The notes under the pieces: generated by a model
The model's database searches: none
The model's input: only the letters and a program-made list of their open reading frames with translations
What the model was told of the DNA's origin: nothing
Translations under genes and position numbers: made by a program
In this document: one piece after another, positions 20,323 to 60,830 of the stretch
How the letters are laid out: every line of letters starts with the position of its first letter
Position numbering within the stretch: position 1 is the first letter of the stretch
Assembly: GCA_963835065.1 (NCBI GenBank)
Contig: CAWIEK010000060.1
Span: forward strand, 96,001 to 160,000
Source of the DNA: an uncultured Chthonomonadaceae bacterium
GTDB taxonomy: Bacteria > Armatimonadota > Chthonomonadetes > Chthonomonadales > Chthonomonadaceae
Length of the DNA: 64,000 bases
Direction: 5' to 3'

Positions 20323-22599
20323 ATGCAAGAAGAAAGTTCTAAAACATCCGACATTTCCCTGCGTGAATACCTTGACCTCCTGCAGCGCCGCAAAGGCATC
20401 CTGATCCAAACGTTTGTTTCGGTATTCGTGGTGGGCGTTGTTATCACCTTTATGACCAAGCCCCTGTACCGCACCAATGCGCGCGTACTGGTGGAAGGCA
20501 AGTCGTACTACGTGCAGCAGTTCGACCCTTCCAACCCGATGGGCAACCTGTTCAGCGCGGATGCCGGGCATGAAGTGGACACGCAGCTGGAAGTGATTCA
20601 GGGCGAAAAGGTGGTTGCCGATACCTACAAGGCGGCAGGCGTTCCCGTCGGCACGGTGAAATTGCAGGCCAAGCAATCCGGCACGACGGATGTCATTGAT
20701 GTCACGACGGAATCCCGCTCCCCGCTTTACGCGCAGTTGTTTGCCAACAAACTGCCCACCGTGTATCTCGATTATGTCACGGGCAACCGCCGAACCGAGA
20801 TTTCCAAAGCGCTGGATTTCGCCTCGAACCGGCTGGCGCAGGAAAATAAGGCGCTGACGCGGGCGGAAACCGATTTGCAGCATTTCCGCGAACGGTCGCA
20901 CGTTTCCGAAGTGACCGTCGAGCGCGAGAACCGCATTAAAACCAAGGTGGCGGCGGAAGACGACGCGCAAAAATCTGCCGCGCATGTCGCGGCTCTGGAA
21001 GCGCGGCTGACGATTTTACAGCGAACCGCCAAAACATTGCCCGATTTTGTGGATAATCCGACTGCGACAACCAACGCGCAAATCCAAAGTTTGAAGGATC
21101 AGATCGCCGGCCTGCAAACGCAGCGACAGGCGCTGCTGGTTCAATCTAAGCCTGCCAATGTCAAAGTGCAGGAAGTGGACGCGCAACTGGCGCACTTGCA
21201 GGAGCGCCTGGCTGCCGCGCCGGACATGACCACAACGGTACAACGCATCCCCAACCCCGCTATTCTTGCGAATGTGGAAAAAATCGCCGCCACGCAGACC
21301 GAGTTGGACGAGGAAAAGGCGCATCTGGCGAACGTTCGCCAGAACGCCAATCTGGATGCCAGCGGCCTGGATAAGTACGGCAATCTGGAACGGCAGCAGG
21401 TGCGAATGCAGCGCGAAATCGAGCGGCACCAAGCCGCTGTCAACACGCTCACCAAAAGCGTGGACGACCTGAGCCTGCGCAAAAGCGCCACGCATGATCC
21501 CGTCCTGCTGATTTCTCCCGCGCCCCTGGGCCAGCAAATCGCGCCCAAGCCGATGAACAACCTGCTGGCGGCGACCCTCATCGGCCTGATTTTGGGACTA
21601 TGTTTCGCGCTCCTGCAGGAGTTTTTGGACGACCGCATCAATACGCCCGAAGAAGCCAAGCGCATCTTTGGCGCGTCCGCACTGGGCTATATTCCCCTGG
21701 TGGAAGACGCGGACGCGCGGCTTTTGGCGCGAACCCGTAACGGCAATCTGCTGGAAACGTATCGCGTCCTGCGTTCCAACGTGATGTTTTCGGCTGTGGA
21801 CGCGCCGATTCGCTCCATTATGATTACCAGTACGATGCCGGGCGAAGGCAAGTCCATGACCGCCTTTAATCTGGCGGTGGCGATGGCGCTGGATGGACGG
21901 CGCGTGATTTTGGTGGATGCCGACCTGCGGCGACCTACCGCGCACAAACTGGTGGGCGTGGAGCGGCGTCCCGGCCTGACGAATGTGCTGGTAGGCGAGT
22001 TGGCGCTGGATGAAGCCCTGCAGGATACGGGCGTCCGTAACCTGCGCGTCCTGACGGCAGGGCCGCTGCCGCCCAATCCCGCCGAAATTTTGAACTCGCA
22101 GGCGATGCGGCAGGTGCATGCCACCCTGCGCGACCGCGCCGACGTGATCATTTATGATACGCCGCCGTGCCTGGCGACGGCGGACGCGCAGGTGGTTTCC
22201 GCCGATGTGGACGGCGTGTTGTACGTGGCGCAGTTCGGCGAAACCAAGAAATCGGCGATGCGCCGGTCGGCGGAACTGCTGCACCAGGCGCATGCCCGTA
22301 TCCTGGGCGTAGTTTTCAACAAAATTGACATCAGCGGCAAGCGCGACGACTACTATTATGGCTACTACCGCTACTACAACTACTACCAGCAGGAGGGCGA
22401 GGGCGAGGAGGGTGGCAGCCGCCGCCGGCTTTCCACGTCCGAGTTCGACCTGATGCAGCAGCGCCGGGAAGCGATGGAAACTTCCGAACACGCCAGCGCG
22501 GTTGCCCAGGACAGCCAGAACGGCACGGCAATGGCCGCGATACGCAGCGAAACCCTGCCTGCGCTGCCGGAAATGGGAAAAGAGGAGAAGGACGCATGA
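20323..22599 (+). CDS. wzc: Polysaccharide co-polymerase / BY tyrosine kinase (Wzc family), copy 1
   Basis: Two TM helices around a coiled-coil; ITSTMPGEGKS; VDADLRRP; IIYDTPP; Tyr cluster YYYGYYRYYNYY. Confidence 0.95.
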   Translation: MQEESSKTSDISLREYLDLLQRRKGILIQTFVSVFVVGVVITFMTKPLYRTNARVLVEGKSYYVQQFDPSNPMGNLFSADAGHEVDTQLEVIQGEKVVADTYKAAGVPVGTVKLQAKQSGTTDVIDVTTESRSPLYAQLFANKLPTVYLDYVTGNRRTEISKALDFASNRLAQENKALTRAETDLQHFRERSHVSEVTVERENRIKTKVAAEDDAQKSAAHVAALEARLTILQRTAKTLPDFVDNPTATTNAQIQSLKDQIAGLQTQRQALLVQSKPANVKVQEVDAQLAHLQERLAAAPDMTTTVQRIPNPAILANVEKIAATQTELDEEKAHLANVRQNANLDASGLDKYGNLERQQVRMQREIERHQAAVNTLTKSVDDLSLRKSATHDPVLLISPAPLGQQIAPKPMNNLLAATLIGLILGLCFALLQEFLDDRINTPEEAKRIFGASALGYIPLVEDADARLLARTRNGNLLETYRVLRSNVMFSAVDAPIRSIMITSTMPGEGKSMTAFNLAVAMALDGRRVILVDADLRRPTAHKLVGVERRPGLTNVLVGELALDEALQDTGVRNLRVLTAGPLPPNPAEILNSQAMRQVHATLRDRADVIIYDTPPCLATADAQVVSADVDGVLYVAQFGETKKSAMRRSAELLHQAHARILGVVFNKIDISGKRDDYYYGYYRYYNYYQQEGEGEEGGSRRRLSTSEFDLMQQRREAMETSEHASAVAQDSQNGTAMAAIRSETLPALPEMGKEEKDA

Positions 22600-23855
22600 G
22601 ATTGAGAGCGCGTTTCGCCGCTTCCGGCTGCATCCTCGCGCTGGGATTGTGCGCAGGGGTTTTGCCGGGAAAGAATGTAAGCGCGCAGGGAGCGGTTCCC
22701 CCCGCCAAAGCGCAGCCTGCCCCTGCCGCTGCCGGGGCGCAAGCGCCCGCTGCGGCCCCTGCCGCCGACCGCGCCGCCCAGGAGTTTACGCTGGGGGCGG
22801 ACGACGTAATTGAAGTGACCGTCCGCGACCATGTGGAATTGGACCATACGCTGACGATCCTGCCGGACGGCAAAATCGCTTATCCCACCGTGGGCGAAAT
22901 GCAGGCGGCGGGTAAAACCCCTCGCGCCCTTGCCGCCGAAATCCAGGCCGAACTGGAAATCACGCTGAACAACATCCATGTGACCGTGACCGTGAAGGAG
23001 GTCCATTCCCGGCGCGTACGCATCGTGGGCGCGGTCAGAGCGCCCGGCGGCTTTGATTTGAAGCGCGACTGGCGCGTGTTCGACCTCATTGCGGCGGCGG
23101 GTGGCTTGAGCGCCAAACCGGAGCAGGTCACGGCCCGTATCATTCGCGGCGGCGCGCTGGTTCCGGTGAACGTGCCCGAAGCGATGCATGCGCCACAGGG
23201 CAGCGCAAATCTTTTGCTGGAGCGCGATGACCTGATGCTGCTGGATGAGCAGCCTGTGGTGAAACGGCAGGCGCAGGTCGTCGGCCAGGTTGCCAGGCCC
23301 AGCCTGTACGATCTCGAACCCGATGCCACGCTGCTGCAGGTGCTGGCGCAGGCGGGCAATCCCACGGACAAAGCCGCGCTATCGCGCGCTTACGTGCTGC
23401 GCGACGGAACGCAAATTCCCGTCAACTTGTACACCTTCCTGGCGGAAGGCAAGCCGGACGACAGCGTGACCAAGTTCCGCATGCAGGCGGGCGATGTGGT
23501 TTTCATTCCCGCCCAGGAAGCGCGCTTCAGCGTTCAGGGGCAAGTAGGCAAGCCGGCATTTTACCCGTATCCCGAAAAAGGCAAAGTGACGGTATTGGAT
23601 GCTTTGAATGAGGCCGGCGGCGCGGCCAACGGCGACCTGAGCAAAGCGGCCATTATTCGCATGACGGACGGCAAGTACGCGGCGACGCCCATTAACATTG
23701 ACCAGATGCTCAAAAAAGGCGATTTGACGAAGAACACGGTTCTCCAGCCCGGCGATATGCTGTACGTGCCCGCGCGCTCGTCGCGCCGGGGTGTCGGGTT
23801 CCAGGACGTGCTGGCTCCCCTCTCGCTTTTGGGATTGCTGGGCATCCGCTTGTAA
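22596..23855 (+). CDS. wza: Polysaccharide export protein (Wza/OPX, Poly_export + SLBB repeats), copy 1
   Basis: LGADDVIEVTV...ILPDGKIAYP..GE..AAGKT, three SLBB repeats and a C-terminal amphipathic helix. Confidence 0.92.
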   Translation: MRLRARFAASGCILALGLCAGVLPGKNVSAQGAVPPAKAQPAPAAAGAQAPAAAPAADRAAQEFTLGADDVIEVTVRDHVELDHTLTILPDGKIAYPTVGEMQAAGKTPRALAAEIQAELEITLNNIHVTVTVKEVHSRRVRIVGAVRAPGGFDLKRDWRVFDLIAAAGGLSAKPEQVTARIIRGGALVPVNVPEAMHAPQGSANLLLERDDLMLLDEQPVVKRQAQVVGQVARPSLYDLEPDATLLQVLAQAGNPTDKAALSRAYVLRDGTQIPVNLYTFLAEGKPDDSVTKFRMQAGDVVFIPAQEARFSVQGQVGKPAFYPYPEKGKVTVLDALNEAGGAANGDLSKAAIIRMTDGKYAATPINIDQMLKKGDLTKNTVLQPGDMLYVPARSSRRGVGFQDVLAPLSLLGLLGIRL

Positions 23856-24324: not shown

Positions 24325-26061
24325 ATGCCAAAATCAAACTCCTGGTGGGAGCAGGCGGTGCAAAACCGACTGGTAGCCGCAGTGCTGGCTATGGTCGTAG
24401 TGATGCCGCTTGTCGCCTTGCCTGCCGAAATGCGCCGCTCCGGCTCGGCGGCTCTGGTCTTCGAGGGTTTTGCCATCCTGCTGATGGCGACCCTGCTGTG
24501 GCGTTCCCAGTGGAACCTGGACAAGGAGCGCGTAACCGCGTTTCTGAAAACCGGCGTCAACCTCCCGGTGATGGCGCTGCTGTGCCTTGCGATTGTGTCG
24601 TGCATCCGTTCTCCGCATAAAATCTACAGCGCGCAGGAAACCCTGCGTTTGGGCGCGGGCGTCCTGCTGTACCTGGTGATTTCGTATCAGTTCCGGCGCT
24701 CCGAATACCTTGCCAAACTGATAGACGTGTTGGTGTTTGTGGCGCTGGCGGCCTCGCTGCTGGGATTTGCGCAGTTCGCGAGCAATTCAACCATTTATGC
24801 GACCGGCATGTTCAACGACCACCAATTGTTCGGCTCGTTTCTGATGCTGCTGCTGCCGATGGTGGCGATCACGGCGATCACGGAAACCAAGACCAATCGG
24901 CAGCTTGCCGCGCAGGTGGCGACGATTTTGACGGCGGCCTGCCTGCTGCTGACGCACACGCGCAGCGCATGGATCGGCGGCGCGGCGGGATTGGTCGCGC
25001 TGGGCTTGCTGGCCGCCTACTCTCTTTCGCGACAAGCGCGCATTGGGCCGCGCAAGCATGCGTGGGTCATGCCCGTGATGCTGCTGTTTGTGGCGGGCGG
25101 GTTCTTCCTGATGGTATCGCCGGATACGGGTTCCATCATGGAGCGCGCGGGCACATTGACGCAGGTCGGCAAGGAAGCCGGCTGGCAGTACCGCCAGAAC
25201 AAGGCGCGCGGCTCCCTGGATATGGTGCGGGCGCGTCCGCTGACGGGCTGGGGCATCGGTTTGTACCCCTACTATCAGCGCCAGTTTACCGGTTCGGGCA
25301 CGGCGCTGTCCGGCGCAATGATGAAGCCCTTCCTGAATGAAGAGGCGCACAATCTGTATCTGCAAACGGCTGCCGAATTGGGTATTCCCGGACTGGTGTT
25401 GCTGGTCAGCATCATAATCATGTTTTTAGGGATGGGCATGGCGCGGTTGCGCAGCATGGAAGTCGGCTTGCGGCGCAATCTGCTGTTGGGTTCCATGGCT
25501 TCGCTGGTGGCCTTTGCGATAGACGCGGCGGGCAGCCCGGCATGGCAGTTGGGACAGAACTCGATGTTTCTGTGGCTGGTTCTCGGCATCGGCGTATCGT
25601 GCCTGCGTCCCAAGCCAAAAGCCAGCGAGGATACGGTTCAGCATTTCGTGCCGCAACTGGTATCGCGTCCCATGATCGCCCTGGCTTCTGTGGGATTGCT
25701 GGCCGTCATGCTGCCGACCCTTGTCGTAGCAAGCATAGGCGAGTACAAGCAGTTGGAATATGTGACCATCGTGCCAAGCCAGGCGAACCTGCGCGGCGGT
25801 TTCCAGAACCAGGCGTTTCGGCTCATCGCGACGTTCGGAAACCCCAGTCGTCCTCAAGACGGCTCGGTTGACCAGGACGTGACTTCCATGTCTACGTTTG
25901 TGAAGATGAACGGCGCGGGCGTCATCATCAACAACAACGTCTATAAGTCCGCCTTCCGCGAACGCGACCTGCCGACGGTGACGGGCACGTACACGGAAAG
26001 CAACTCCTTCCAGAATAATCAAAGCGGATCGGACACGGCGCAGTTGCGGGTCACGCCGTAA
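24325..26061 (+). CDS. O-antigen ligase/Wzy_C-family membrane protein with C-terminal Ig-like domain, copy 1
   Basis: Many TM helices; LLLTHTRSAWIG; RPLTGWGIG; AHNLYLQTAAELGIPG; beta-rich tail after 25732. Confidence 0.88.
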   Translation: MPKSNSWWEQAVQNRLVAAVLAMVVVMPLVALPAEMRRSGSAALVFEGFAILLMATLLWRSQWNLDKERVTAFLKTGVNLPVMALLCLAIVSCIRSPHKIYSAQETLRLGAGVLLYLVISYQFRRSEYLAKLIDVLVFVALAASLLGFAQFASNSTIYATGMFNDHQLFGSFLMLLLPMVAITAITETKTNRQLAAQVATILTAACLLLTHTRSAWIGGAAGLVALGLLAAYSLSRQARIGPRKHAWVMPVMLLFVAGGFFLMVSPDTGSIMERAGTLTQVGKEAGWQYRQNKARGSLDMVRARPLTGWGIGLYPYYQRQFTGSGTALSGAMMKPFLNEEAHNLYLQTAAELGIPGLVLLVSIIIMFLGMGMARLRSMEVGLRRNLLLGSMASLVAFAIDAAGSPAWQLGQNSMFLWLVLGIGVSCLRPKPKASEDTVQHFVPQLVSRPMIALASVGLLAVMLPTLVVASIGEYKQLEYVTIVPSQANLRGGFQNQAFRLIATFGNPSRPQDGSVDQDVTSMSTFVKMNGAGVIINNNVYKSAFRERDLPTVTGTYTESNSFQNNQSGSDTAQLRVTP

Positions 26062-26196: not shown

Positions 26197-26386
26197 GGTA
26201 CAGATAAATACTTATCTACGGATTAGTTTGCTTCGCAATTGTTGAGCCTCAAACGTAAACTGTGGCGCTTTCATGCGGCTTACCGCCCTTTTCCTTTGCT
26301 GCCGTTCTCGCTTCTCCCATTTGAAATTTGCTTTGTGAAGTTTGCTTTGCAAAGTTTTCTTTAACGCAGATTTTACGCGAGTAAAG

Positions 26387-27562
26387 ATGATGAAAATTGC
26401 CATTGTACACGACTTTCTAATGCAGATGGGTGGGGCGGAAAAGGTCGTCGAGGTTCTCCACGACATGTACCCGGACGCGCCTGTCTACACGTCGGCGTAT
26501 GACGCGAAGGCAATGCCATCCGCCTACCGGCAATGGGATATTCGCACCAGTTTTCTGCAAAACCTGCTGATGAAGCGGCACACGCACCGCATGGCGCTGC
26601 TGCTGTATCCCATCGCTTTTGAAGGCTTCGATTTATCCCCCTATGATGTGGTAATCAGTTCCTCGTCGGCGTTTGCCAAGGGCGTCATCACGCAGCCGCA
26701 CACGCAGCATATCTGCTACACGCACACGCCCATGCGCTATGCGTGGACGACGCGCTCCTATATGCAGAATGAGCGGATGTCGCGGATGCTGCGCGGGATG
26801 CTGCAGCCGGGTACGCACTATCTGCGGATGTGGGACTCGCTGGCGACGAACCGCGTGGATCAACTGGTCGCCAATTCGAGCGCGGTGGCGCGGCGCATCA
26901 AAAAGTTTTATCGCCGGGACAGCGTGACCATTCATCCGCCCGTAAACACGCAGCGTTTTCAGTTGTCGGAAGACCGGGGAAACTATTATATTATAGTGTC
27001 GCGCTTTGTTCCCTACAAGCGCCTGGATCTGGCGGTGGAAGCGTTTACGCGCATGGGCAGGCCGCTCAAGGTGGTTGGCACGGGCCGTCAGTTGAAGAGT
27101 TTGCAGGAGCGGGCGGGCAGCAATGTGGAATTTTTGGGGCATGTCAGCGATGCGGATTTGCCGATGCTGATGGCGCAGGCGCGGGGCTTTATCATGCCGG
27201 GCGAAGAGGATTTCGGCATCGCGCCTGTGGAAGCCAATGCCTGCGGCGTTCCCGTGATCGCGTATGCGGCAGGCGGGGCGCTGGACTCGCAGCGGGATGG
27301 CGTAACGGGCTTTTTGTTCCCGGAGCAGACGGTAGACTCGCTGTGCGAAGCGGTGGAAAAGGCGGAGCGAACGCGCTTCGATCCGATTGCGATCCGCAAC
27401 CACGCGCGCCGTTTTGATACAAGCGTGTTCCGCCGCGAAATCGCCTGCCTGGTGAATAAATCCCTGCATGGGGCAGGAAACGGTTCTTTGGAGTCCTCTC
27501 CCTCCGACGGGGCGTTGCCGTCCGATGTGGAGCATGACCGGGCGGTAGCGATGATTGGTTGA
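26387..27562 (+). CDS. Glycosyltransferase family 4 (WbaZ-like mannosyltransferase)
   Basis: KIAIVHDFL..GGAEKV, HICYTHTPMRYAW and EEDFGIAPVEANACG. Confidence 0.93.
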   Translation: MMKIAIVHDFLMQMGGAEKVVEVLHDMYPDAPVYTSAYDAKAMPSAYRQWDIRTSFLQNLLMKRHTHRMALLLYPIAFEGFDLSPYDVVISSSSAFAKGVITQPHTQHICYTHTPMRYAWTTRSYMQNERMSRMLRGMLQPGTHYLRMWDSLATNRVDQLVANSSAVARRIKKFYRRDSVTIHPPVNTQRFQLSEDRGNYYIIVSRFVPYKRLDLAVEAFTRMGRPLKVVGTGRQLKSLQERAGSNVEFLGHVSDADLPMLMAQARGFIMPGEEDFGIAPVEANACGVPVIAYAAGGALDSQRDGVTGFLFPEQTVDSLCEAVEKAERTRFDPIAIRNHARRFDTSVFRREIACLVNKSLHGAGNGSLESSPSDGALPSDVEHDRAVAMIG

Positions 27563-27637
27563 AGTGTAGTTGATAGTTCAAGCATCGGCGCGTCTTTGCG
27601 TTTGTGCGGCAGATTTGTGTAGAATTATACGGGAAGC

Positions 27638-28528
27638 GTGAGCAAGGTTATTTTGGAACCGGTATTACAGGCGGATAATTTGCGGGCGGAACCATTGGTA
27701 GAGGCGGAAAAACCGTTTTTGCTGATTACGCCGAGCAAGGGTTGGGCGGCGCTGAACCTGCGCGAATTGTGGCAGTTCCGCGATCTGCTGACGACGCTGG
27801 CGGCACGGGACGTAAAACTGCGCTACCGGCAAACGGCGTTGGGCGCGGTATGGGTCATTTTGCAGCCTCTGATGGCGGCGGGCATCTTCTCGGTGGTCTT
27901 CGGCAAAGTCGCCAAACTCCCCAGTGACGGCCTGCACTATTTCCTGTTCGCGTATGCGGGTCTGCTCGGCTGGAACGTGTTCAGCAGCACGTTAGGCAAG
28001 GTGAGCGGCTGTCTGGTCGGCAACGCGCATCTGGTGTCGAAAGTGTTCTTCCCGCGCCTGGTGCTGCCGCTTGCGACCGTGTTTTCGACGCTGGTGGACT
28101 TCGGGGTGGCGCTGGCGATGCTGGTTGTGCTGATGGTAATCTACCATGTGGTTCCGACGTTGGGATTGCTGCTGCTTCCCCTGTGGGTGCTGCTGACGCT
28201 GCTGCTGGCGATGGGCATCGGCCTGTGCGCTTCGGCCCTGATGGTGACGTACCGGGATGTGGGGTACGTGCTGCCGGTTGTGACGCAGTTTCTGCTGTAC
28301 GGCAGTCCCGTCGCGTATGCGCTGTCGGCGGTTCCGAAGGATTGGAAGATGGTTTACCTGCTGAATCCCCTGTCCGTGCTGCTGGAAGGCTTTCGCTGGT
28401 CGCTGCTCGGACGCGGAACCGTGAGCGCGCAGGGCGTGGCGTATGCGGCAGCGGTGTCCATCCTGGCGTTCCTGGGCGGCGCGTTCGCGTTCAAGCGCAT
28501 GGAGCGGAAATTCGCCGACGTCATTTAG
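27638..28528 (+). CDS. wzm: ABC-2 polysaccharide exporter permease
   Basis: RDVKLRYRQTALGAVWVILQPL, LVSKVFFPR, YRDV, LNPL and ERKFADVI. Confidence 0.95.
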   Translation: MSKVILEPVLQADNLRAEPLVEAEKPFLLITPSKGWAALNLRELWQFRDLLTTLAARDVKLRYRQTALGAVWVILQPLMAAGIFSVVFGKVAKLPSDGLHYFLFAYAGLLGWNVFSSTLGKVSGCLVGNAHLVSKVFFPRLVLPLATVFSTLVDFGVALAMLVVLMVIYHVVPTLGLLLLPLWVLLTLLLAMGIGLCASALMVTYRDVGYVLPVVTQFLLYGSPVAYALSAVPKDWKMVYLLNPLSVLLEGFRWSLLGRGTVSAQGVAYAAAVSILAFLGGAFAFKRMERKFADVI

Positions 28529-28534
28529 GCAACA

Positions 28535-29737
28535 GTGGGACAATCAATCGTGCAAACCACGCAGCCCGATGCTCAACCCGTTCCAACCAACCAGGTTTAC
28601 CGCCTGCTGAATGTGTGCCGGGGGATTGCGGCACTGAGCGTGGTTGTGTTCCATACGATCGTGATACTGGTCAATCGCTTTCCTGACCTGCGCCATTTTC
28701 CGCTTTATGTGATCGGCGCGTTCGGTTTTCTTGGCGTACAGATGTTTTTTGTGGTCAGCGGCTATTGTATTGCTGCGGCTGCCGCCACAACGCTGACGCG
28801 GGGTGATAGCACAGGCAACTTTCTTTTGGCGCGGGCGCGGCGTATCTTTCCGGCGTACTGGTGTTCGCTGGCGTTTTACATACCCGCCGCCCTGCTCATG
28901 GCGTTTATGGTGGCGCATGGCCGTGTCCATTCCAGCGGCATGGCGGACGTGGATATTGTCCATCAGCGCATCGGGTTCTACCTGGCGCATCTGGCCCTGC
29001 TGCAAGAGGGGCTGCGTTACCCGGCCCTGAGCGTGGTATACTGGACTCTGTGTTATGAAGCCGCCTTTTACGTATTGGTGGCCGTGTGCCTAGCGATTGC
29101 GCAGCGTTTTGGAAGGGTTCGCGTCCTTCTCTCCTGTGCCCATGTGCTGACGGTTGTGACGCTGCTGCTGCCGTGGATCGCGCCCCGCTGGTGGGCTTAT
29201 CCATTGGATATGTGGGCGCAGTTCGGGTTGGGAATTCTGGTTTATGATTTGCTTGCCAACCCGCAGCAGAACGCGCCGAAAGCATGGGCTGTGGTAATTG
29301 CGGCGCAGATTGCCGGGCTGATCGGGGCGCATCGTATCGCGGGGATTATCGCGCCGCAGTCCAACGAATTGACGTATGCGGTCAGCCTGGGCATCGCCGC
29401 CCTGCTGTGGTTCCTGCATCGCTACGACGCCTGCCTGAGCGCGACAAAGCCCGCGCGCCTGCTGGCGGCAACGGGCCTATTTTCGTACAGCCTGTACCTG
29501 ATCCATTTTCTGTTTCTCGGCTTTATCAGTCAGGGGATCGCGCTGCTACATCTTCCGGTCGGACTGCATCTGCTCTGGTTTGCGGGCGCGATTGGATTGG
29601 CGATAGCGTCCGGGCGCATGTTCTATAAGTTCTGCGAACAGCCGTTTACGCAGCGTAAGCGCGCGCTTCCGGGCGTGGAGACTGCCGAAGCGCTGGCATT
29701 GCAAAGAGCCAGAGCAGACGGATACGTTCGTTTGTGA
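28535..29737 (+). CDS. Acyltransferase family 3 (OafA-like)
   Basis: RGIAALSVVVFH, GVQMFFVVSGY, RRIFPAYW, WTLCYEAAFY and SYSLYLIH. Confidence 0.93.
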   Translation: MGQSIVQTTQPDAQPVPTNQVYRLLNVCRGIAALSVVVFHTIVILVNRFPDLRHFPLYVIGAFGFLGVQMFFVVSGYCIAAAAATTLTRGDSTGNFLLARARRIFPAYWCSLAFYIPAALLMAFMVAHGRVHSSGMADVDIVHQRIGFYLAHLALLQEGLRYPALSVVYWTLCYEAAFYVLVAVCLAIAQRFGRVRVLLSCAHVLTVVTLLLPWIAPRWWAYPLDMWAQFGLGILVYDLLANPQQNAPKAWAVVIAAQIAGLIGAHRIAGIIAPQSNELTYAVSLGIAALLWFLHRYDACLSATKPARLLAATGLFSYSLYLIHFLFLGFISQGIALLHLPVGLHLLWFAGAIGLAIASGRMFYKFCEQPFTQRKRALPGVETAEALALQRARADGYVRL

Positions 29738-29775
29738 AGCGCCAAAAGGTTTTCGACTGCTTGTAAGGATGTTCT

Positions 29776-31032
29776 ATGTCCTCCAATGATATTGCCGTAT
29801 CGGTGCGCGGCCTGAATAAAGCTTATACTATTGCTCATAACGCGGAGAAACATTCGACGGCGGCGGAAGCCCTGATGCACCGCCTGAAAAACCCGTTCCA
29901 GCGCCAGGAGAAAGAAACGTTCTGGGCGCTTAAGGATGTAGAATTCGACATCAAGAAGGGTGACGTGGTGGGCATCATCGGGCGCAACGGCGCGGGCAAA
30001 TCCACGTTGCTCAAAATCCTCAGCCGCATTACGGAACCGACAACGGGAAGCGTTGCCTTGTACGGGCGCGTGGGCAGCCTGCTGGAAGTGGGTACGGGGT
30101 TCCACCCGGAACTGACAGGCCGCGAAAACATTTTCCTGAACGGCGCAATTTTGGGCATGGCGAAAAGCGAGATCGCGCGCCAGTTCGACGCCATTGTAGA
30201 TTTTTCCGGTACAGAGCAGTTTATTGATACACCGGTAAAACGTTATTCCAGTGGCATGTATGTTCGTTTGGCCTTCGCGGTTGCCGCGCACTTGAACCCT
30301 GAAATTTTAATTGTGGATGAAGTCCTGGCTGTTGGAGACGTGGAGTTCCAAAAAAAGTGTTTGGGTAAAATGAAGGATGTCGCGCACAGCGGGCGCACAG
30401 TGCTCTTTGTTAGTCACAACATGACTGCCGTACAACAACTTTGTCAGCGAGCTGTTCTCCTTCAGGAAGGCAAGATAGTATCAGATGGCTCAATATCACA
30501 AGTGGTTGATTGCTATTTGAACAATGGCAGACAAAGTAATTCTGAGGTCGTATATAGTGATCTTAGTTTAGCCCCGGGCGATTTTAGAGCAAAATTCGCC
30601 AGTATTCGTATTCTGGACCGAGATAAGGTAGCCGATCACGTTGACATTGAACATCCTTTGCTGGTTGAGATCAACTATCGTGTTCTTGTGCCTGACGTGG
30701 TTCTCAACTTGTCTATAGCTTTGTATGATAAGAATGAGGTGTATGTGTTGGCATCCGCTTCTATATCAGATGCGGAATGGTATCAAAGGCCTCATCCTGT
30801 GGGTAATTTTCAGAGTTGTTGCATTATTCCAGGATGCTTCTTAAACGAAGGTAGCTATAGTATCAGCGCTCTATTGGTGGAGAATGGAAACCATATTATA
30901 GCTTCTGCAGAACGTGCTGTTACAGTTGAAATGGTAGATTTTGGAGCAAGCCGTCAAGGGTATCATGGAACATGGAATGGAGTAGTAAGGCCCCATCTTA
31001 TGTGGCATACGAATGTCGCCGACCATTGCTAA
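29776..31032 (+). CDS. wzt: ABC polysaccharide exporter ATPase with C-terminal Wzt_C carbohydrate-binding domain
   Basis: GRNGAGKST, YSSGMYVRLAF, IVDEVLAVGD and VSH, followed by a beta-rich C-terminal domain. Confidence 0.95.
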   Translation: MSSNDIAVSVRGLNKAYTIAHNAEKHSTAAEALMHRLKNPFQRQEKETFWALKDVEFDIKKGDVVGIIGRNGAGKSTLLKILSRITEPTTGSVALYGRVGSLLEVGTGFHPELTGRENIFLNGAILGMAKSEIARQFDAIVDFSGTEQFIDTPVKRYSSGMYVRLAFAVAAHLNPEILIVDEVLAVGDVEFQKKCLGKMKDVAHSGRTVLFVSHNMTAVQQLCQRAVLLQEGKIVSDGSISQVVDCYLNNGRQSNSEVVYSDLSLAPGDFRAKFASIRILDRDKVADHVDIEHPLLVEINYRVLVPDVVLNLSIALYDKNEVYVLASASISDAEWYQRPHPVGNFQSCCIIPGCFLNEGSYSISALLVENGNHIIASAERAVTVEMVDFGASRQGYHGTWNGVVRPHLMWHTNVADHC

Positions 31033-54548: not shown

Positions 54549-54565
54549 TTGGCACAAATTATGCA
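54549..54565 (+). promoter_or_regulatory. Sigma54 (-24/-12) promoter of the PEP-CTERM gene
   Basis: TTGGCACAAATTATGCA, GG-N10-GC, about 95 bp before ATG 54660. Confidence 0.75.
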
Positions 54566-54659
54566 ATACTTAAGTATGTCAGGCAAACCAAGTGTTTCGT
54601 TCAGCATTTTGTTCCAAGCCCGCGCGCTTTTCTCTCGCTACCTTAAAGGAGACCTTTTT

Positions 54660-55550
54660 ATGATCCGTCACGTTCGACATTTGTTCACCGGCCTTGCTTT
54701 AGCTGCCGGGCTTTCTTGTTCCGTATTCGCGTCCGCACAAACCATTTATGTCGCGGGCGGCCCCATCAGCGCAGCCGCAACGCCAGGCGTTCTCGGAACC
54801 ATCAATCCCATTACAGGCGTATTCTCCCTGATTGGCACCACCAGCACCGAGCTGACCGGCATTGCCTTCTCCCCTATCACCGGCGTTCTGTACGGGGTGA
54901 GCGCGGATGCAACCACGCTTTACACAGTGAACGCCGCGACAGGCGCGCTGACTACTGTTGGCGCGACAGGGTTGGGAACGGGCACCTTCGATATCGCCGA
55001 TGGGCTTGCTTTCCGTTCCGATGGCACACTGTTCCTGGCGGACGCTACCGGCGCGGGGGGATCGGCGAGCAACCTGTATACGGTGAGTACAACGACGGGC
55101 GCGGCCTCTGTCGTTGGCGCTATCGGCAACCAGTCTTCGGCCACCATCGGCTTCGACGGCAGCGGCAACCTGTTTGAGATCAACAACCAGGTTACGCCTA
55201 ATACCCTTGTGTCCCTGAACCAGTCCACCGGCGCGGGAACCACTGTCGGCAGCGTTCCCTTCCGGGACATCAGCGGCCTGGCCTTCTCGAACGGAATCCT
55301 TTTTGGTTTCACCGACACCAACCAATCCGGCGCGAACACTACAAACTCGGTTGTCGCAGTGAACACAACGACAGCCGGGGCCACGTTCATCAGTTCGTAT
55401 AATCTGGGCAACGGCAACGTTATCACTGCGGCCACGCCGTTTCAGGGCGCGGCGGTTCCCGAACCCTCCACGCTTGCCCTGCTGATGGGCATGGGCGTGA
55501 CCGGCACGGGCGTGTTCCTGCGCCGCAAGCGCGCCACTGCGTCCGCGTAA
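54660..55550 (+). CDS. PEP-CTERM sorting-domain protein (Thr/Gly-rich beta-propeller-like repeats)
   Basis: AAAGGAG RBS; signal peptide ...VFASA|Q; repeats LYTVNxxTGAxTxVG; VPEPSTLALL-TM-RRKR. Confidence 0.95.
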   Translation: MIRHVRHLFTGLALAAGLSCSVFASAQTIYVAGGPISAAATPGVLGTINPITGVFSLIGTTSTELTGIAFSPITGVLYGVSADATTLYTVNAATGALTTVGATGLGTGTFDIADGLAFRSDGTLFLADATGAGGSASNLYTVSTTTGAASVVGAIGNQSSATIGFDGSGNLFEINNQVTPNTLVSLNQSTGAGTTVGSVPFRDISGLAFSNGILFGFTDTNQSGANTTNSVVAVNTTTAGATFISSYNLGNGNVITAATPFQGAAVPEPSTLALLMGMGVTGTGVFLRRKRATASA

Positions 55551-55591
55551 GCGGTAACGCGATGTCTCGCGCGGCGTTACGCCACTTCGAC

Positions 55592-55633
55592 AGTCACAGG
55601 CCGATAGCACCTCGCGGCCTGTGACTATTTCTT
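55592..55633 (+). terminator. Intrinsic terminator after the PEP-CTERM gene
   Basis: 12-bp stem AGTCACAGGCCG/CGGCCTGTGACT followed by ATTTCTT. Confidence 0.7.
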
Positions 55634-55669
55634 GCCGCGCCGTAATCTATCCATAAACTGATAAGTATC

Positions 55670-56566
55670 ATGGCTGTTGCTGAGAAGGAAACTGCAAATA
55701 CGTCGGCGCGGCCCGGCAATTGGCGCGCTGCGCAGGCATGGCGCGGCGATCCTTCCTGCTGGCTGCTGGCAGGCGCGCTGATTGCGCTGTACGCGCCCGT
55801 ATTTGTGGAAACGGCGCATATCTGGCTCGTAGACGCCTACTCCGCGCACGGCTTTTTGATCCCCTTCCTAACCGGCTTGCTCATCTGGTGGCGCAGGCAG
55901 GAACTTGCCGATGCGCCGCGAAGTTGCAATCGTTGGGGGTTCGCGCTGCTGGCAGGCGGGTTGCTGCTGGAAACGGCAGCCTGGTACGCCCGTATTCGCG
56001 TGTTCGCCATGCTGTCGCTGGTTCCCGTTCTGCTGGGCGCGTCGCTGCTGTTGGGCGGTTCGCGCATCACGCGCATACTGCTGTTTCCCCTGCTGTTTTT
56101 GGGGTTTGCGGCTCCCCTGCCTACCTGGCTGGTGCAGCCGGTCAGTTTTCCCATTCAAAACATCTCCTGCCGCGCCGCAAGCTGGAGTGTGCAGCAGACG
56201 GGCGTTCCCATCTCGCAGGAGGGGTTCACCATCGGCCTGTCCAATGGAAGTTCGCTGGAAGTGGCCGAGGAGTGCAGCGGCTTCAAGAAAACGCTGACGA
56301 TAACCGTGTTCGCCTGCTTTTACGCTTCGCTGTTTGCCATTCCGCTGTGGAAGCAGGGCGCGCTCGTGCTGCTGGCGATGCCGCTTGCGATTGTGGCAAA
56401 TATCGCGCGGGTGTCGGGCTTGATTTTAACCGCGAACGCCTGGGGCATACGCGGCGTTCACTGGCTGCATGATATTGCCGATCCCTTTGTGGTCGTGCTG
56501 TGTTTCGGATTGCTGCTGTGGGCCGGGAGAGTGCTGGGATGCCGAAAATTGCGTTACTCCGTATAG
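55670..56566 (+). CDS. Exosortase (EpsH family)
   Basis: AHGFLIP; catalytic Cys in VAEECSG, Arg in ANIARV and His in LHD; multi-TM. Confidence 0.95.
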   Translation: MAVAEKETANTSARPGNWRAAQAWRGDPSCWLLAGALIALYAPVFVETAHIWLVDAYSAHGFLIPFLTGLLIWWRRQELADAPRSCNRWGFALLAGGLLLETAAWYARIRVFAMLSLVPVLLGASLLLGGSRITRILLFPLLFLGFAAPLPTWLVQPVSFPIQNISCRAASWSVQQTGVPISQEGFTIGLSNGSSLEVAEECSGFKKTLTITVFACFYASLFAIPLWKQGALVLLAMPLAIVANIARVSGLILTANAWGIRGVHWLHDIADPFVVVLCFGLLLWAGRVLGCRKLRYSV

Positions 56567-57201
56567 CCATTTCCGGCCTGCTGCTGCTGGCCTGCCTGGT
56601 CAATCACGCGACTTCCCGGCTGCCCATCCCTCAATTGCGCCTGGTTCCGATTGACCGCCTGCCGCGCCAGATAGGCAATTGGACGTGTACGCAGGACTTG
56701 CCGATTGAGGCCAAAGTGCGCGCGGTGCTGCCGGACGCCGCCTTTTTGTCCCGCGCGTACCGCGACCCGCAGGGACGAACGGCGCAATTGTTTCTGGAAA
56801 CTTCGCAGGACGCGCAGATGTTTCATTCGCCGACGCAGTGCATGCCCGCGCAAAACTGGAACATTCTGGACACGCGCCGGGTAGACATACAGCCTGCCGC
56901 TTTGGGCGAAAGCGGACAAAAGATCGCTTCTGCCCAAAACGAACCGAGCGCCGGGGCAACCGAAATGGATATGCAGAGCGCGGGGCAAAATATGCTTTTG
57001 CTCTACTGGTACACCAGTGAGCGCCAACTGGACAAGTGGCAGGCGTTAAAAACAAAATTGCTGTCCGGGCGCCCTCCCACCCGTCTGTTTGTCCGCATTC
57101 TGGTTCCCGCGTCCGCAGACTTCGGGCCATCCGCGCAAACCGCGCGAGATTTCGCCCAGGCGCTGCTGCCGACTATCACCGAACTGGCAAATGCAGGGTG
57201 A
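56539..57201 (+). CDS. epsI: Exosortase-associated EpsI-family protein
   Basis: LPRQIGNW, RAYRDP, HSPTQCMPAQNW and LYWY; overlaps the exosortase stop. Confidence 0.88.
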   Translation: MPKIALLRIAISGLLLLACLVNHATSRLPIPQLRLVPIDRLPRQIGNWTCTQDLPIEAKVRAVLPDAAFLSRAYRDPQGRTAQLFLETSQDAQMFHSPTQCMPAQNWNILDTRRVDIQPAALGESGQKIASAQNEPSAGATEMDMQSAGQNMLLLYWYTSERQLDKWQALKTKLLSGRPPTRLFVRILVPASADFGPSAQTARDFAQALLPTITELANAG

Positions 57202-57408
57202 GGTTAAAAGTAAACATGACAGGATTACCGGAAATCAGGGAAAACCGGTAGTTCTGGCGTGGGCAAACAGGAAAATCCCGACGGGAATCCCTACCGATTT
57301 TAAGCAGATTGTGATATTATGTAACTGTTGTCAGTCGGCGGCTTACGCGCCAGGCTGCCGGCTTTGAGAATGGCGCTTACGCAGCCTTGCGAAAGATAAA
57401 ACCGAAGT

Positions 57409-58479
57409 ATGGAATCGTCTGAAATCCCCGCTTCCTCGCCGTCCAAACCGGGCGCGCTTCCCCCAATGGGCGGATGGCTTGCGCCGGTTGATGAGGGAGA
57501 CTATTACGAAGAGGAAATCGTTGTTGCGCCCCCCGCGTCCCCCAAAGCCAGGCGAAAACTGGCGCTGATGCTGATTGTGACCCTGCTTGCGGGGGCGGCG
57601 ATTGGCGCGCTGGTGACGCGGCAAAGATACAAGGGCAAGCAGGTGGTTGCGTCCGTCAACGGCGTGGTCATTGCGGAGCCGTACTTCTTCCATCGCATGG
57701 AAATGGAAATCGGCAACGGCACCCTGCGCAAAATCGTCGCGGATGAATTGCAGCTTCAGTATGCGCGTAAACTGGGCGTGTACCCCTCCGACCAAGAGGT
57801 GCTTGCCCGCTACAAGCAGATGAGCGAGCAGCCGAATTTCGGGCAGTACCTTGCGTCCACGCACCAGGTTCCTGATGATATTTTGCACACGATTCGGGTC
57901 ACGCTTGCCGCCGATGGCCTCGTCACCAAAGGCGCGGCGGTCAGCGATGAGGAAGTTCGGGCGTACTACAATCGCGAGTCCGACAAAAACAATCCGCAGG
58001 CGCGTTACTACACGCCCAAAACAGTGATCATTGCAGTCATCAAAACACGTTCGCAGGCGCAGATAAATCTGGCGGCGGCGGAACTGGCGAAGAATGTGGA
58101 GTTTGCCAAAGTCGCCGCCAAATACAGCGAGGATGGCAGCCGGCAGTCGGGCGGAACGCTTCCTCCCGTTCCCTATGGCCGCACTCCCGCCACGCGGGTT
58201 ACGGGCGCGCAGGACGCGGTTTTCGGACTGCAAATCGGCGAACAATTGGGGCCGAAGCAAATAGCCGGTTACTGGTGGATCATTCGCTGCCTGGACAAAA
58301 AGCCCGAAGTTCTCCGGCCTTTTGAGGAAGTCAAGGACGAGTGCCGCCACAACCTCTTGATTGCCAAAGGGCTGCCCGCCAACGGCGATAAAGTGCGCGA
58401 CGGCTATCGCCAGTTCACGCAGGACGCCACCATCCGCGCCTTCTGGCCGGAATACAAACACGTCATCGGGGCGAAGTAG
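57409..58479 (+). CDS. Parvulin-type peptidyl-prolyl isomerase / SurA-PrsA-like foldase (EpsD-like)
   Basis: TM anchor, VASVNGVVI, FAKVAAKYSEDGSRQSGG and PFEEVK. Confidence 0.85.
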   Translation: MESSEIPASSPSKPGALPPMGGWLAPVDEGDYYEEEIVVAPPASPKARRKLALMLIVTLLAGAAIGALVTRQRYKGKQVVASVNGVVIAEPYFFHRMEMEIGNGTLRKIVADELQLQYARKLGVYPSDQEVLARYKQMSEQPNFGQYLASTHQVPDDILHTIRVTLAADGLVTKGAAVSDEEVRAYYNRESDKNNPQARYYTPKTVIIAVIKTRSQAQINLAAAELAKNVEFAKVAAKYSEDGSRQSGGTLPPVPYGRTPATRVTGAQDAVFGLQIGEQLGPKQIAGYWWIIRCLDKKPEVLRPFEEVKDECRHNLLIAKGLPANGDKVRDGYRQFTQDATIRAFWPEYKHVIGAK

Positions 58480-58485
58480 TTTGTC

Positions 58486-58570
58486 GGTGTTCAGGTGTTC
58501 GGTATTCAGGTATTCAGGACAAATGCAAGTCTTTCCAGAACACCCGAATACCTGAACACCTGAACACCGT
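58486..58570. repeat. Inverted octamer tandem repeat (GGTRTTCA)n...(TGAAYACC)n
   Basis: About four units on each arm, in the intergenic gap. Confidence 0.85.
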
Positions 58571-58594
58571 TCCCTACAAGGTTTAAGCAACATA

Positions 58595-60829
58595 ATGTCG
58601 GAAGACTTTTCCACGCAATCTTCAGAAATATCGCTGCGCGATTACGCGGATTTGCTGCGGCGGCGCAAGTACATCGTTCTGCAAACGTTTGTGCTGGTCA
58701 TCATGGTGGGAACCATTGTGACGTACCTGACCAAGCCCACGTACCGCACCATCGCGCGCATTCTGGTGGAAGGCCGCGAGTTCACCCTCGCGCAGTACAA
58801 CACCTCAGATCCCCTGAGTACCCTCTTCATGCCGGATGCGGGGCACGATATTTCCACGCAGATCGAAGTGCTGCAAAGCGCGCGGGTGATGAGCGATGCG
58901 TTTCAATCCGCCGGGGTGTCGCCTGCCGATGTGCATGTGGACATCAAGCAAGTCGGCAATACGGACGTGATCGAGATCGTCACCGAGTCCAACAAGGCCG
59001 AGTACGCCGAGCGCATGGCCCGCGTCCTGCCCACCGTGTATAAAAACTACATGGCGGGCAATCGCAAAACCGAAGTGGTCACGGCTCTTTCCTCGTCGCG
59101 GGACCGATTAAACGAAGAAAAGCAGAAACTGAGCCAGGCGGAATACGCCATACAAAAGTTCAAGCAGAAAACCCATCTGCCGGACGTAGCCCTGGATAAA
59201 ACGTCGCGTATCGGCGAAGCGAACTCGACGGAAAGCGAAGCCAAGCGCGCGCAGGCAGACGTTGCTTCAGCCGCCGCCCGTTTGAATACCCTGCAGGCTG
59301 ACCGCAAGCGCCAGCCGGACTTTATAGACACGCCGACGACGGTTTCCAACAACGCCGCCCTGCAAACCGCCAAAGACCAGCTTTCTCAATTGCGTAATGA
59401 GCGCGTTCGCCTGCTTGCCGGTTACAAGCCGGGAACCTTTGAAATCAATCAGGTAGACACGCAGATCGCGCAGGCCGAGCAGCGTCTCAATGATACGCCG
59501 CCAACCGTCACCAGCGTTTCCCACGCGCCCAACCCGATTTTGAGCAGCTACGACCAGAAGGTTTCCGAAGCGCAGGCGACCCTCAACGCGGCGCAGGCGC
59601 AATTGGACAAAGCGCAGAGCCATGCGACCGAAGCCACCGCCAAGCTTGGCAAGTTCAGTACGCTGGATCGGCAGCAGGCGGAATTGCAGCGCAATCTGGA
59701 AGAGCATCAGGCCAATGTCAAGACCCTGACGACAACCGTGCAGATGCTGGATTTGCGCGACAAAGCCACGCACGATCCGCTCATGACCATCACGCCCGCC
59801 GGTCCCGCGTTTCAAGTCGCGCCCCGCCCGGTTATCAACATGATCTATTCCGCTGTCGTGGGATTGATTCTGGCGTTGGGACTGGCGCTGCTGCAGGAAT
59901 TCATGGATGACCGCGTGAATTCGCCCGACGATGCGCGGCGGATGCTGGATACGCCGGTTCTGGGCTATGTGCCGTTAATTGAAAAAGAGGAAGGGCGGCT
60001 GCTCAGTCAAACGCGCAGTAACGGCGCGATTCTGGAAAGCTACCGCGTGGTGCGCTCCAACGTGCAGTTCGCCACGCTTGGCTCGCAGGTCTGTTCGCTC
60101 CTTGTCACCAGCACGGTTCCCGGCGAAGGCAAGTCCGTGACGGCCACCAACCTGGCGATTGCGATGGCATTGGACGGCAAAAAGGTGATTCTTGTGGACG
60201 CCGATCTGCGCCGCTCTACCGTGCATCAAAAGTTCGACATTCCGCAATCCCCCGGCCTGACCAATGTGCTTATCGGGCGCACGTCCCTGGAAGCCGCCCT
60301 GCGCGATACGGAATTTCCCGGCCTGCGGCTACTGACTGCCGGCCCACAGCCGCCCAACCCGGCGGAACTGCTCAACTCGGAGCCGATGCAGCGTCTGCAC
60401 GAGCGGCTTAAAGAATACGCCGACGTGGTGATTTACGACAGCCCGCCGTGTCTGGCGACTGCCGATGCGCAGGTCTTGTCGGCTTCGGTAGACGGCGTGA
60501 TGTACGTGATCCAACTGGGCGAAACCAAAAAATCCGGCGTCCGCCACGCGATGGAACTGCTGAACCAGGCACACGCCAATGTGCTGGGCGTGATCTTCAA
60601 CAAGGTTCGCGCTAATGGCAAGCAATCCGGCTACTATGATTACTACGGCTATTACGGGTATTATGGAAGCGTGTATGGCGAGGACGGTTCGCGCAAGCGC
60701 GTGAGTTCCGAATTTGAAGCCCTGCTTGCCGACAGCGACGAAGAACCCCGCGAACCGGCAGCAGCCATTTTGCCCCCGGCGGAAACGCGCCCGACCCAGA
60801 GCCGAAGCGGAAAGCGAAAGGAAGACTGA
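58595..60829 (+). CDS. wzc: Wzc-family co-polymerase / BY kinase, copy 2
   Basis: Paralogue of 20323: VTSTVPGEGKS, VDADLRR, IYDSPP and YYDYYGYYGYY. Confidence 0.95.
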   Translation: MSEDFSTQSSEISLRDYADLLRRRKYIVLQTFVLVIMVGTIVTYLTKPTYRTIARILVEGREFTLAQYNTSDPLSTLFMPDAGHDISTQIEVLQSARVMSDAFQSAGVSPADVHVDIKQVGNTDVIEIVTESNKAEYAERMARVLPTVYKNYMAGNRKTEVVTALSSSRDRLNEEKQKLSQAEYAIQKFKQKTHLPDVALDKTSRIGEANSTESEAKRAQADVASAAARLNTLQADRKRQPDFIDTPTTVSNNAALQTAKDQLSQLRNERVRLLAGYKPGTFEINQVDTQIAQAEQRLNDTPPTVTSVSHAPNPILSSYDQKVSEAQATLNAAQAQLDKAQSHATEATAKLGKFSTLDRQQAELQRNLEEHQANVKTLTTTVQMLDLRDKATHDPLMTITPAGPAFQVAPRPVINMIYSAVVGLILALGLALLQEFMDDRVNSPDDARRMLDTPVLGYVPLIEKEEGRLLSQTRSNGAILESYRVVRSNVQFATLGSQVCSLLVTSTVPGEGKSVTATNLAIAMALDGKKVILVDADLRRSTVHQKFDIPQSPGLTNVLIGRTSLEAALRDTEFPGLRLLTAGPQPPNPAELLNSEPMQRLHERLKEYADVVIYDSPPCLATADAQVLSASVDGVMYVIQLGETKKSGVRHAMELLNQAHANVLGVIFNKVRANGKQSGYYDYYGYYGYYGSVYGEDGSRKRVSSEFEALLADSDEEPREPAAAILPPAETRPTQSRSGKRKED

Positions 60830-60830
60830 C

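Follow-up and report, generated by a model that had tools for sequence, protein, structure and literature searches.

Wzy_C ligases of Armatimonadota paired, in one gene or two, with a signal-peptide-like helix and a near-invariant tyrosine

The window analysed here is a 64,000-nucleotide stretch (positions 96,001 to 160,000, forward strand) of contig CAWIEK010000060.1 from an uncultured Chthonomonadaceae bacterium of the phylum Armatimonadota (assembly GCA_963835065.1). It contains two genes for polytopic enzymes of the Wzy_C ligase type, designated paralogue 1 and paralogue 2, whose products are 43% identical (Table 1). Each is the third gene of a wzc-wza-ligase run, and each enzyme continues beyond its 12-helix core into a tail comprising a thirteenth, signal-peptide-like helix, a tyrosine shortly after it and a beta-strand domain. 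The conserved element of this tail is the tyrosine just past the predicted cleavage site, and the immunoglobulin-like (Ig) domain is an exchangeable passenger. A homologue search matched 132 proteins, about 106 of the 120 listed being close, and named homologue loci belong to the Chthonomonadaceae, Abditibacteriaceae and Capsulimonadaceae, L018 lying in a complete Abditibacteriota genome. The family profile matches 113 of 401 genomes of the phylum at 1e-20, with distant TPR-type ligases counted in.

Table 1. Coordinates of the two paralogues, their landmarks and their neighbouring genes in the window
Feature	Position	Strand	Basis or remark
Paralogue 1: Wzy_C ligase/oligosaccharyltransferase with signal-peptide/Tyr/Big_2-like partner, 578 residues	24325..26061	+	likely ATG behind ribosome-binding site
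12-helix WaaL-fold core of paralogue 1, residues 1-429	24325..25611	+	PF04932 E 1.3e-17; Z 24.1 to 7tpg
Arg213, likely equivalent of WaaL Arg191	24961..24963	+	outside the 7tpg alignment; invariant in group A1; 131/133 tailed main-clade rows
Arg290, aligned with WaaL Arg265	25192..25194	+	HMMER alignment; 133/133 tailed main-clade rows
His342, aligned with WaaL His313	25348..25350	+	invariant in all seven groups
Helix 13 of paralogue 1, signal-peptide-like, R448-A469	25666..25731	+	R448 at 25666, hydrophobic run, P464-T465, A469 at 25729-25731; predicted signal peptidase I site after A469
Near-invariant Tyr474 (candidate for glycan acceptance or docking)	25744..25746	+	entropy; window counts
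Big_2-like Ig domain, residues 475-578, exchangeable passenger	25747..26058	+	beta domain runs to the stop at 26061
wzc and wza (OPX), immediately before paralogue 1	20323..23855	+
GT4, Wzm, acyltransferase and Wzt, downstream of paralogue 1	26342..31032	+	ABC-type glycan supply
PEP-CTERM gene, exosortase, EpsI, peptidyl-prolyl isomerase, wzc and wza, upstream of paralogue 2	54549..62213	+
Paralogue 2 (P0043), 604 residues	62432..64000	+	ends 246 bases past the window (C60:160246)
Helix 13 of paralogue 2 (R467-A487) through Tyr492	63830..63907	+	putative site between A487 and V488 at 63893; Tyr492 at 63905

The core of paralogue 1 has the WaaL fold. An AlphaFold2 model based on 63 sequences shows 13 membrane helices at a mean predicted local distance difference test score (pLDDT) of 84.7, and its residues 9-431 superpose on WaaL (7tpg) with Z 24.1 and a root mean square deviation (rmsd) of 5.0 over 363 residues (VIA-align). 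PF04932 is matched at 64 and 73 bits by the two paralogues, the cut-off being 31.7. Counts of lysine plus arginine alternate along the helices (family mean 5.6 before helix 13, 0.0 before helix 12), as for an amino terminus in the cytoplasm, with the long catalytic loop and the tail outside. The tail is thus predicted to be periplasmic, in agreement with a preliminary description of this DNA made from the sequence alone.

Published work on WaaL assigns diphosphate binding to R191 and R265 and a proposed role as acceptor activator to H313, and states that polymerases of the WaaL clan mostly carry Asp or Glu at the catalytic His position, GT127 excepted (PMC10920833). In the present family this position is His in every subgroup, which points to the ligase or oligosaccharyltransferase type; a Wzy polymerase of clan GT-C1 was rejected on the same ground, with GT127 as a caveat. 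The presence of wzc, wza and partner genes argues against a strict WaaL role with lipid A-core as acceptor. Neither paralogue passes any NCBIfam cut-off (the IctB family TIGR00947 gives 82 and 87 bits, below its cut-off of 366), and neither is matched by the RfaL model or by TPR families. The PglL_A and Wzy_C_2 domains of PglL and PglS are absent, at E 0.1, from both paralogues and from the 45 family members scanned.

The tails begin as the preliminary description had read them: a basic residue, a hydrophobic run, LPT and a small-x-Ala site lie where it had placed them in both paralogues. In about 100 close homologues the Arg is present in 96 of 104, the Pro in 90 of 103 and Ala or Ser at position -1 in 93 of 104, and conservation in more than 130 proteins rules out a chance or read-through artefact. 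The likeness of the terminal domain to Big_2 Ig folds, suspected from the outset, is borne out by a superposition of the paralogue 1 tail on the Big_2 domain of LigA (Z 12.4, rmsd 1.3 Å, 85 residues) and by a sequence match of the family profile to LigA 8gyr (E 6e-6). The Pfam Big_2 model (PF02368) matches one of 30 tails (E 0.00046) and leaves paralogue 1 unmatched, and Atlas yielded only Big_2 leads below 0.9.

The most conserved residue of the tail had been missed in the preliminary description. This is Tyr474 (Tyr492 in paralogue 2), with an entropy of 0.08 bits against 2.9-3.5 for its neighbours. Its occurrence was counted in 132 dereplicated main-clade tails of at least 60 residues, 19 shorter or truncated rows and one duplicate being left out, with the helix-13 Pro as anchor and the tyrosine itself excluded from anchoring. 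A tyrosine lies within Pro+6 to Pro+15 in 127 of these tails, as compared to 5 of 132 in the next ten residues, and at Pro+10 to Pro+12 in 123. Among the five tails that lack it, one is mis-anchored and two (P0060, P0062) carry a tyrosine further on, before the first Ig domain. The earlier emphasis on the Ig domain is not supported, since 46 of the 132 tails have none and 44 of these 46 keep the tyrosine, as do 83 of the 86 Ig tails. Non-Ig passengers include Cys-rich domains, short sequences with a second hydrophobic or low-complexity segment, and Poly_export; tandem Ig domains also occur. The tail profile matches 3931 representative proteins, the best 150 of which are nearly all tandem repeats, some of them Big_2 by Pfam. 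The best matches to this generic repeat mostly begin at profile positions 7-9, and the tyrosine is position 5. Being kept without the Ig fold, and standing in front of the repeat, the tyrosine belongs with the helix and not with the Ig fold.

Some individual passengers and relatives may be described here. Four proteins (P0066, P0074, P0076, P0085) have a Poly_export (Wza-type) domain after the tyrosine, which suggests contact with the export machinery. Seven others (P0047, P0049, P0051, P0057, P0059, P0070, P0106) have small Cys-rich passengers with 9-12 Cys, and the three scanned gave no relevant Pfam match. A ligase of 1138 residues (L035:7977-11393) carries Phe at the position of the tyrosine and a passenger of about 690 residues with matches of CarboxypepD_reg and SdrD_B type; its His-Gly and Gln-Cys motifs are reminiscent of a caspase/legumain-type peptidase and may point to one. 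Orthologues at L002, L022, L028 and L293, all metagenome-assembled, show frameshifts or internal stops within the tail or ahead of it; these are probably assembly errors. A sister ligase clade, group B (L199, L214, L216-L220, L222, L224-L226, L228-L235, L237-L241, L250), is usually found beside a GT4 gene. Here helix 13 is continued by a charged helix, and the beta-rich, Ig-looking domain is a different one; AxA and tyrosine are both absent, and the form appears to be uncleaved. In group C ligases (L193, L197, L206, L208, P0107) helix 13 is followed by a conserved C-terminal seven-residue motif, LP-x-P-H/N-L, predicted to be periplasmic.

The helix and its tyrosine are also encoded by stand-alone genes. 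Tailless ligases, which stop right after helix 12, often precede a separate small gene that opens with a helix-13-like sequence. Such a free partner gene is found directly behind a tailless ligase at L102, L127, L130, L179, L190, L191 and L194 and behind a short-tailed relative at L221; at L191 there are two in tandem, followed by wzc. In the same neighbourhood survey many other tailless ligases had no free partner gene adjacent. The gene at L102 starts 247 bases past the ligase stop, encodes 91 residues (profile E 1.1e-6) and has a predicted promoter of its own (11/12 sigma-70 match) and a 16-pair terminator. The protein family of L179 contains 14 stand-alone Ig proteins with an invariant Ala at -1 and an invariant tyrosine five to seven residues on. 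Free and fused tails align with an hhalign probability of 96.9 (E 2e-10). There are also eight short free peptides, several of them queries or close kin, and in all eight a tyrosine follows an Ala-ending signal sequence. Two of the free proteins (P0271-P0292), P0285 and P0288, bear NCBI names as proteins of Capsulimonas corticalis.

The distribution of these genes follows that of the tailless ligases. Both profiles were run on 59 genomes of the order. Strong free genes (E below 1e-29) are present in 6 of the 8 genomes with tailless ligases, in none of the 15 with fused forms and in none of the 36 that lack a ligase. Three of the weak matches correspond to the fused tails, and another (G109) is partial. 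The free partner is unlinked to the ligase in G036 and lies on other contigs in G145 and G329. Two to three copies are present in G145, G329, L190 and L191, which resembles what substrates might show. Profile searches found no free partner gene in the genome studied here, and profile A3, run over the 401 genomes, returned mostly fused tails and one already-known free gene. On a tree of 55 core rows (quick search) the 11 split forms need four changes, in either direction, and their monophyly is rejected (approximately unbiased test, p-AU 2e-13). L102 falls among fused proteins with tails similar to its free gene, and L190 and L191 fall in the same way with L119 and L120. By these sequence comparisons the tail is a fused gene that relatives encode separately. 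The partner proteins have no pilin match in Pfam or NCBIfam, and neither collection holds a model for the signal-peptide-plus-tyrosine partner, fused or free.

Helix 13 shows the features of a Sec signal peptide cleaved by signal peptidase I, namely a basic n-region, a hydrophobic h-region, a helix breaker and small residues at -3 and -1. A small-x-[AS] site ends the helix in 117 of 132 tails. Conservation of the AxA-like site, on which the preliminary description had relied, was found in homologues: [AVS]xA is present in 105 of 133 main-clade tails, versus 5 of 27 in the Tyr-less group B and 5 of 11 TPR ligases. There is a precedent for internal cleavage of a polytopic synthase, as signal peptidase cuts LtaS and thereby tunes the length of lipoteichoic acid (PMC12260438). 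On balance we expect, with some reserve, that the fused form is cleaved by signal peptidase. The idea that the released amino terminus serves as nucleophile for exosortase was dropped because the +1 residue varies.

Taken together, the ligase and its partner very probably form a functional pair, and it is only a little less certain that the tyrosine acts with the enzyme. That the tyrosine is glycosylated has about an even chance. The explanation that we prefer, although it falls somewhat short of even, is that a dedicated oligosaccharyltransferase and the tyrosine acceptor that it modifies are joined in one protein. Helix 13, as the partner's signal peptide, would hold the tyrosine near the periplasmic active site, where His342 would activate its hydroxyl group as acceptor. 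The donor would be a glycan linked to undecaprenyl diphosphate and made by the neighbouring pathway, which includes Wzm/Wzt for paralogue 1 and Wzx for paralogue 2. After transfer, signal peptidase would free the glycosylated partner, and the product may prime or anchor the polysaccharide handled by Wzc and Wza. An acceptor is favoured by an invariant hydroxyl residue within a hypervariable linker, by the free exchange of passengers and by free genes in several copies. WsfB is described as a Wzy_C enzyme and as the predicted oligosaccharyltransferase of a Tyr-glycosylated S-layer protein (PMC2943079), and dedicated O-oligosaccharyltransferases are reported in a review to adjoin the gene of their acceptor (PMC12645811). 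More tentatively, Armatimonadota might possess an undescribed class of Tyr-linking oligosaccharyltransferases with a dedicated non-pilin acceptor, consisting of a signal peptide, a few residues and a tyrosine, and encoded either separately or as the enzyme's tail. The fused enzyme would then glycosylate its own tail, and signal peptidase would release a primer or anchor for a Wzc/Wza polysaccharide, with the passenger riding along.

The preliminary description had offered, as one of two possibilities, an enzyme joined to a secreted acceptor or scaffold of its own. This part gains strong comparative support from the stand-alone genes for signal peptide, tyrosine and Ig domain in genomes with tailless ligases. 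The same proposal had pictured a Ser/Thr/Asn-rich passenger, which the tails are only moderately (0.27-0.28), so that the stress laid on these residues is not supported.

Several observations weigh against an acceptor that is transferred to and then released. In a signal-peptide matrix, which is narrow in having been trained only on 48 PEP-CTERM signal peptides of this genome, helix 13 has a median of 4.1, whereas true signal peptides reach 15.9 and helix 3 has 3.5. The score does not set helix 13 apart from helix 1 or helix 3, and since the N-terminal copies in free genes come out just as low (4.6), it carries little weight either way. Position -2 of helix 13 is mostly hydrophobic, versus Q, H or R in the PEP-CTERM training set. 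Within the free family, conservation is 76% for the signal sequence and 44% for the Ig domain (0.76 versus 0.44); in the partner PEP-CTERM genes the values are 44% for the signal sequence and 29% for the mature part. Such high conservation would be equally compatible with a helix that docks and with one that is discarded, and the signal helix of the partner probably also docks on the enzyme, whether it is later cut or not. The tyrosine segment is modelled by AlphaFold2 at low confidence (block pLDDT 74 in paralogue 1 and 58 in P0098). A fused protein holds enzyme and acceptor at 1:1, a ratio more in keeping with a subunit than with a substrate used in bulk. Two tailless genomes that are more than 90% complete (G231, G334) have no free hit, and the eight tailless genomes share one ligase clade and hence are not independent. 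Finally, the available flanks contain wzc, wza or cpsB at 11 of 17 tailed loci of the main clade and at none of the 12 loci of Capsulimonadaceae type; the corresponding figures are 7 of 12 for distant loci and 0 of 6 for tailless main-clade loci.

The strongest alternative, which we consider a serious but minority possibility, is that the partner is a subunit and not a substrate. Helix 13 and the tyrosine would dock on the enzyme and complete or open the acceptor site, the Ig domain would recruit true acceptors such as the adjacent PEP-CTERM protein, and cleavage may not occur. The 1:1 fusion, the conserved helix and the pairing with PEP-CTERM genes all favour a subunit or adaptor. Each of the 9 free Ig genes examined is directly followed by a homologous small PEP-CTERM gene. 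These partners form one family, and the generic model TIGR02595, the only one passed, is above its cut-off in all 8 scanned. Paralogue 2 and its orthologue at L008 also have a PEP-CTERM gene next to them, of another type. That of paralogue 2 is not matched by the profile of the free genes' partners, which counts against this reading. Moreover, a PEP-CTERM neighbour is rare for fused loci, being clear only for these two among 99 loci with enough downstream DNA, and the short free peptides precede a wzc or cpsB-like gene instead. The view of the preliminary description that the tail is an acceptor-recognition module for glycosylating PEP-CTERM proteins is therefore supported locally, by the free Ig genes and paralogue 2, and fails for the family as a whole.

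Structural and comparative data divide in a similar way. A docking role is consistent with the placement of helix 13 at pLDDT 71-83 in P0098, and with group B, which keeps helix 13 and a beta-rich domain without AxA or tyrosine, a layout shared by TPR ligases. It is harder to reconcile with the variety of unrelated sequences that take the passenger's place, the smallest being a short peptide with a single hydrophobic segment. Core residues Q167 and L337 occur in every group with the tyrosine and are missing from group B, a pattern that rests on one or two losses. It would fit a tyrosine-binding pocket, and such a pocket suits an acceptor tyrosine as well as a docking one.

Another view is that helix 13 is an ordinary anchor that stays uncleaved and holds an accessory domain in the periplasm, like that of TPR-bearing ligases, and that the role of the tyrosine is merely structural. 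A thirteenth helix with a periplasmic domain is indeed common in Wzy_C proteins, contrary to the preliminary description, which had regarded such a tail as abnormal for these enzymes, and the signal-peptide score of helix 13 is not distinctive. Helix-13-like sequences, however, open stand-alone genes of secreted type, and the tyrosine persists without the Ig fold and sits outside the generic repeat; we regard an ordinary anchor as improbable. Least probable is a regulatory plug or product-length switch, in which the tyrosine peptide would fill the acceptor site until cut by signal peptidase: the LtaS precedent, the conserved Ala at -1 and the almost fixed distance of the tyrosine from the helix would suit it, but all catalytic residues are in the core and none is removed by cleavage, and it does not readily account for free genes that are expressed separately, occur in several copies and carry large, variable passengers.

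Other features of the surroundings were recorded. Paralogue 2 is followed on its 3' side by the PEP-CTERM gene and then wzx. A third Wzy_C protein is encoded at 48405-49763 among glycosyltransferases; it is tailless, has a His-Asn motif and is unmatched by the core profile, which places it outside the family. GT4 glycosyltransferases at 44855-46017 and 49760-50966 are apparently split into N- and C-terminal open reading frames, possibly by frameshifts or assembly indels. Both OPX (Wza) proteins (22596-23855 and 60714-62213) have an Ala-Gln-type signal site without a lipobox, and a hydrophobic C-terminal segment. In other genomes, free signal-Tyr-Ig genes and small PEP-CTERM genes form tandem arrays of pairs (L277:8908-12758 and L279:8726-11126). 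EppA (NF046088) was considered and is unrelated. The tyrosine was also considered as a target of the Wzc kinase; the kinase domain of Wzc is cytoplasmic and the tyrosine is predicted to be periplasmic, and on this topology the idea was rejected.

A phylum-wide enzyme-partner pair centred on one tyrosine, and found repeatedly as one gene or as two, gives an orphan ligase family one exactly defined candidate for its acceptor residue. If the tyrosine is glycosylated, this would be an undescribed way to anchor surface sugars on protein and would bear on how polysaccharide of the Wzc/Wza type leaves its lipid carrier; the very short tyrosine sequon might also be of use in glycoengineering. If the partner is an adaptor instead, it would point to a possible way for PEP-CTERM proteins to acquire glycans.

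Among known systems, WaaL (GT121, PDB 7TPG) shares the 12-helix fold, PF04932 and the catalytic residues, Arg290 and His342 falling on Arg265 and His313. By contrast, identity is only 15-18%, and the family described here adds helix 13 and the tail and adjoins wzc and wza. TIGR03097, the PEP-CTERM/exosortase-associated O-glycosylation ligase, is likewise a Wzy_C enzyme of an exosortase/exopolysaccharide region, but neither paralogue matched it at E 0.1 and relatives reach 32-36 bits against a cut-off of 188. Staphylococcus aureus LtaS is also a polytopic surface-polymer enzyme with an internal signal-peptidase site, yet its fold is unrelated and cleavage releases its catalytic domain. The Big_2 repeats of LigA/LigB (PF02368) resemble the tail in fold and profile match, whereas the domain here is usually in single copy, lies below Pfam detection in 29 of 30 tails and has a tyrosine in front.

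The closest functional parallels are enzymes with a dedicated protein acceptor. In the pairs TfpO/PilA, TfpM/pilin and PglS/ComP, a Wzy_C enzyme with an essential His is linked to one small exported cognate protein (PMC9829042, PMC12645811), and the dedicated O-oligosaccharyltransferases covered in that review act on pilin-like proteins at Ser or Thr (PMC12645811). The partner in the present family is non-pilin, with a signal sequence of Sec type, and often forms one protein with the enzyme; its conserved residue near the mature N-terminus is Tyr instead of Ser/Thr. The TfpM model gives 13.8 bits on one tailless member, the cut-off being 600. WsfB of Paenibacillus alvei and the WsaB/WsaA system also feature a Wzy_C enzyme with predicted transfer of glycan to tyrosine, and the fusion of an accessory C-terminal TPR domain in WsfB, with WsaA and WsaB split, parallels the fused and split forms seen here (PMC2943079). 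WsfB differs, by that account, in its TPR accessory part and large S-layer acceptor, and no internal signal-like site or built-in tyrosine is described there. No description of the ligase-partner architecture was found in the literature searched, which left most subscription journals outside its coverage. A thirteenth helix with a periplasmic domain is known already from Wzy_C proteins, and what appears to be new is a signal-peptide-plus-tyrosine partner that interconverts between a fused and a free form.

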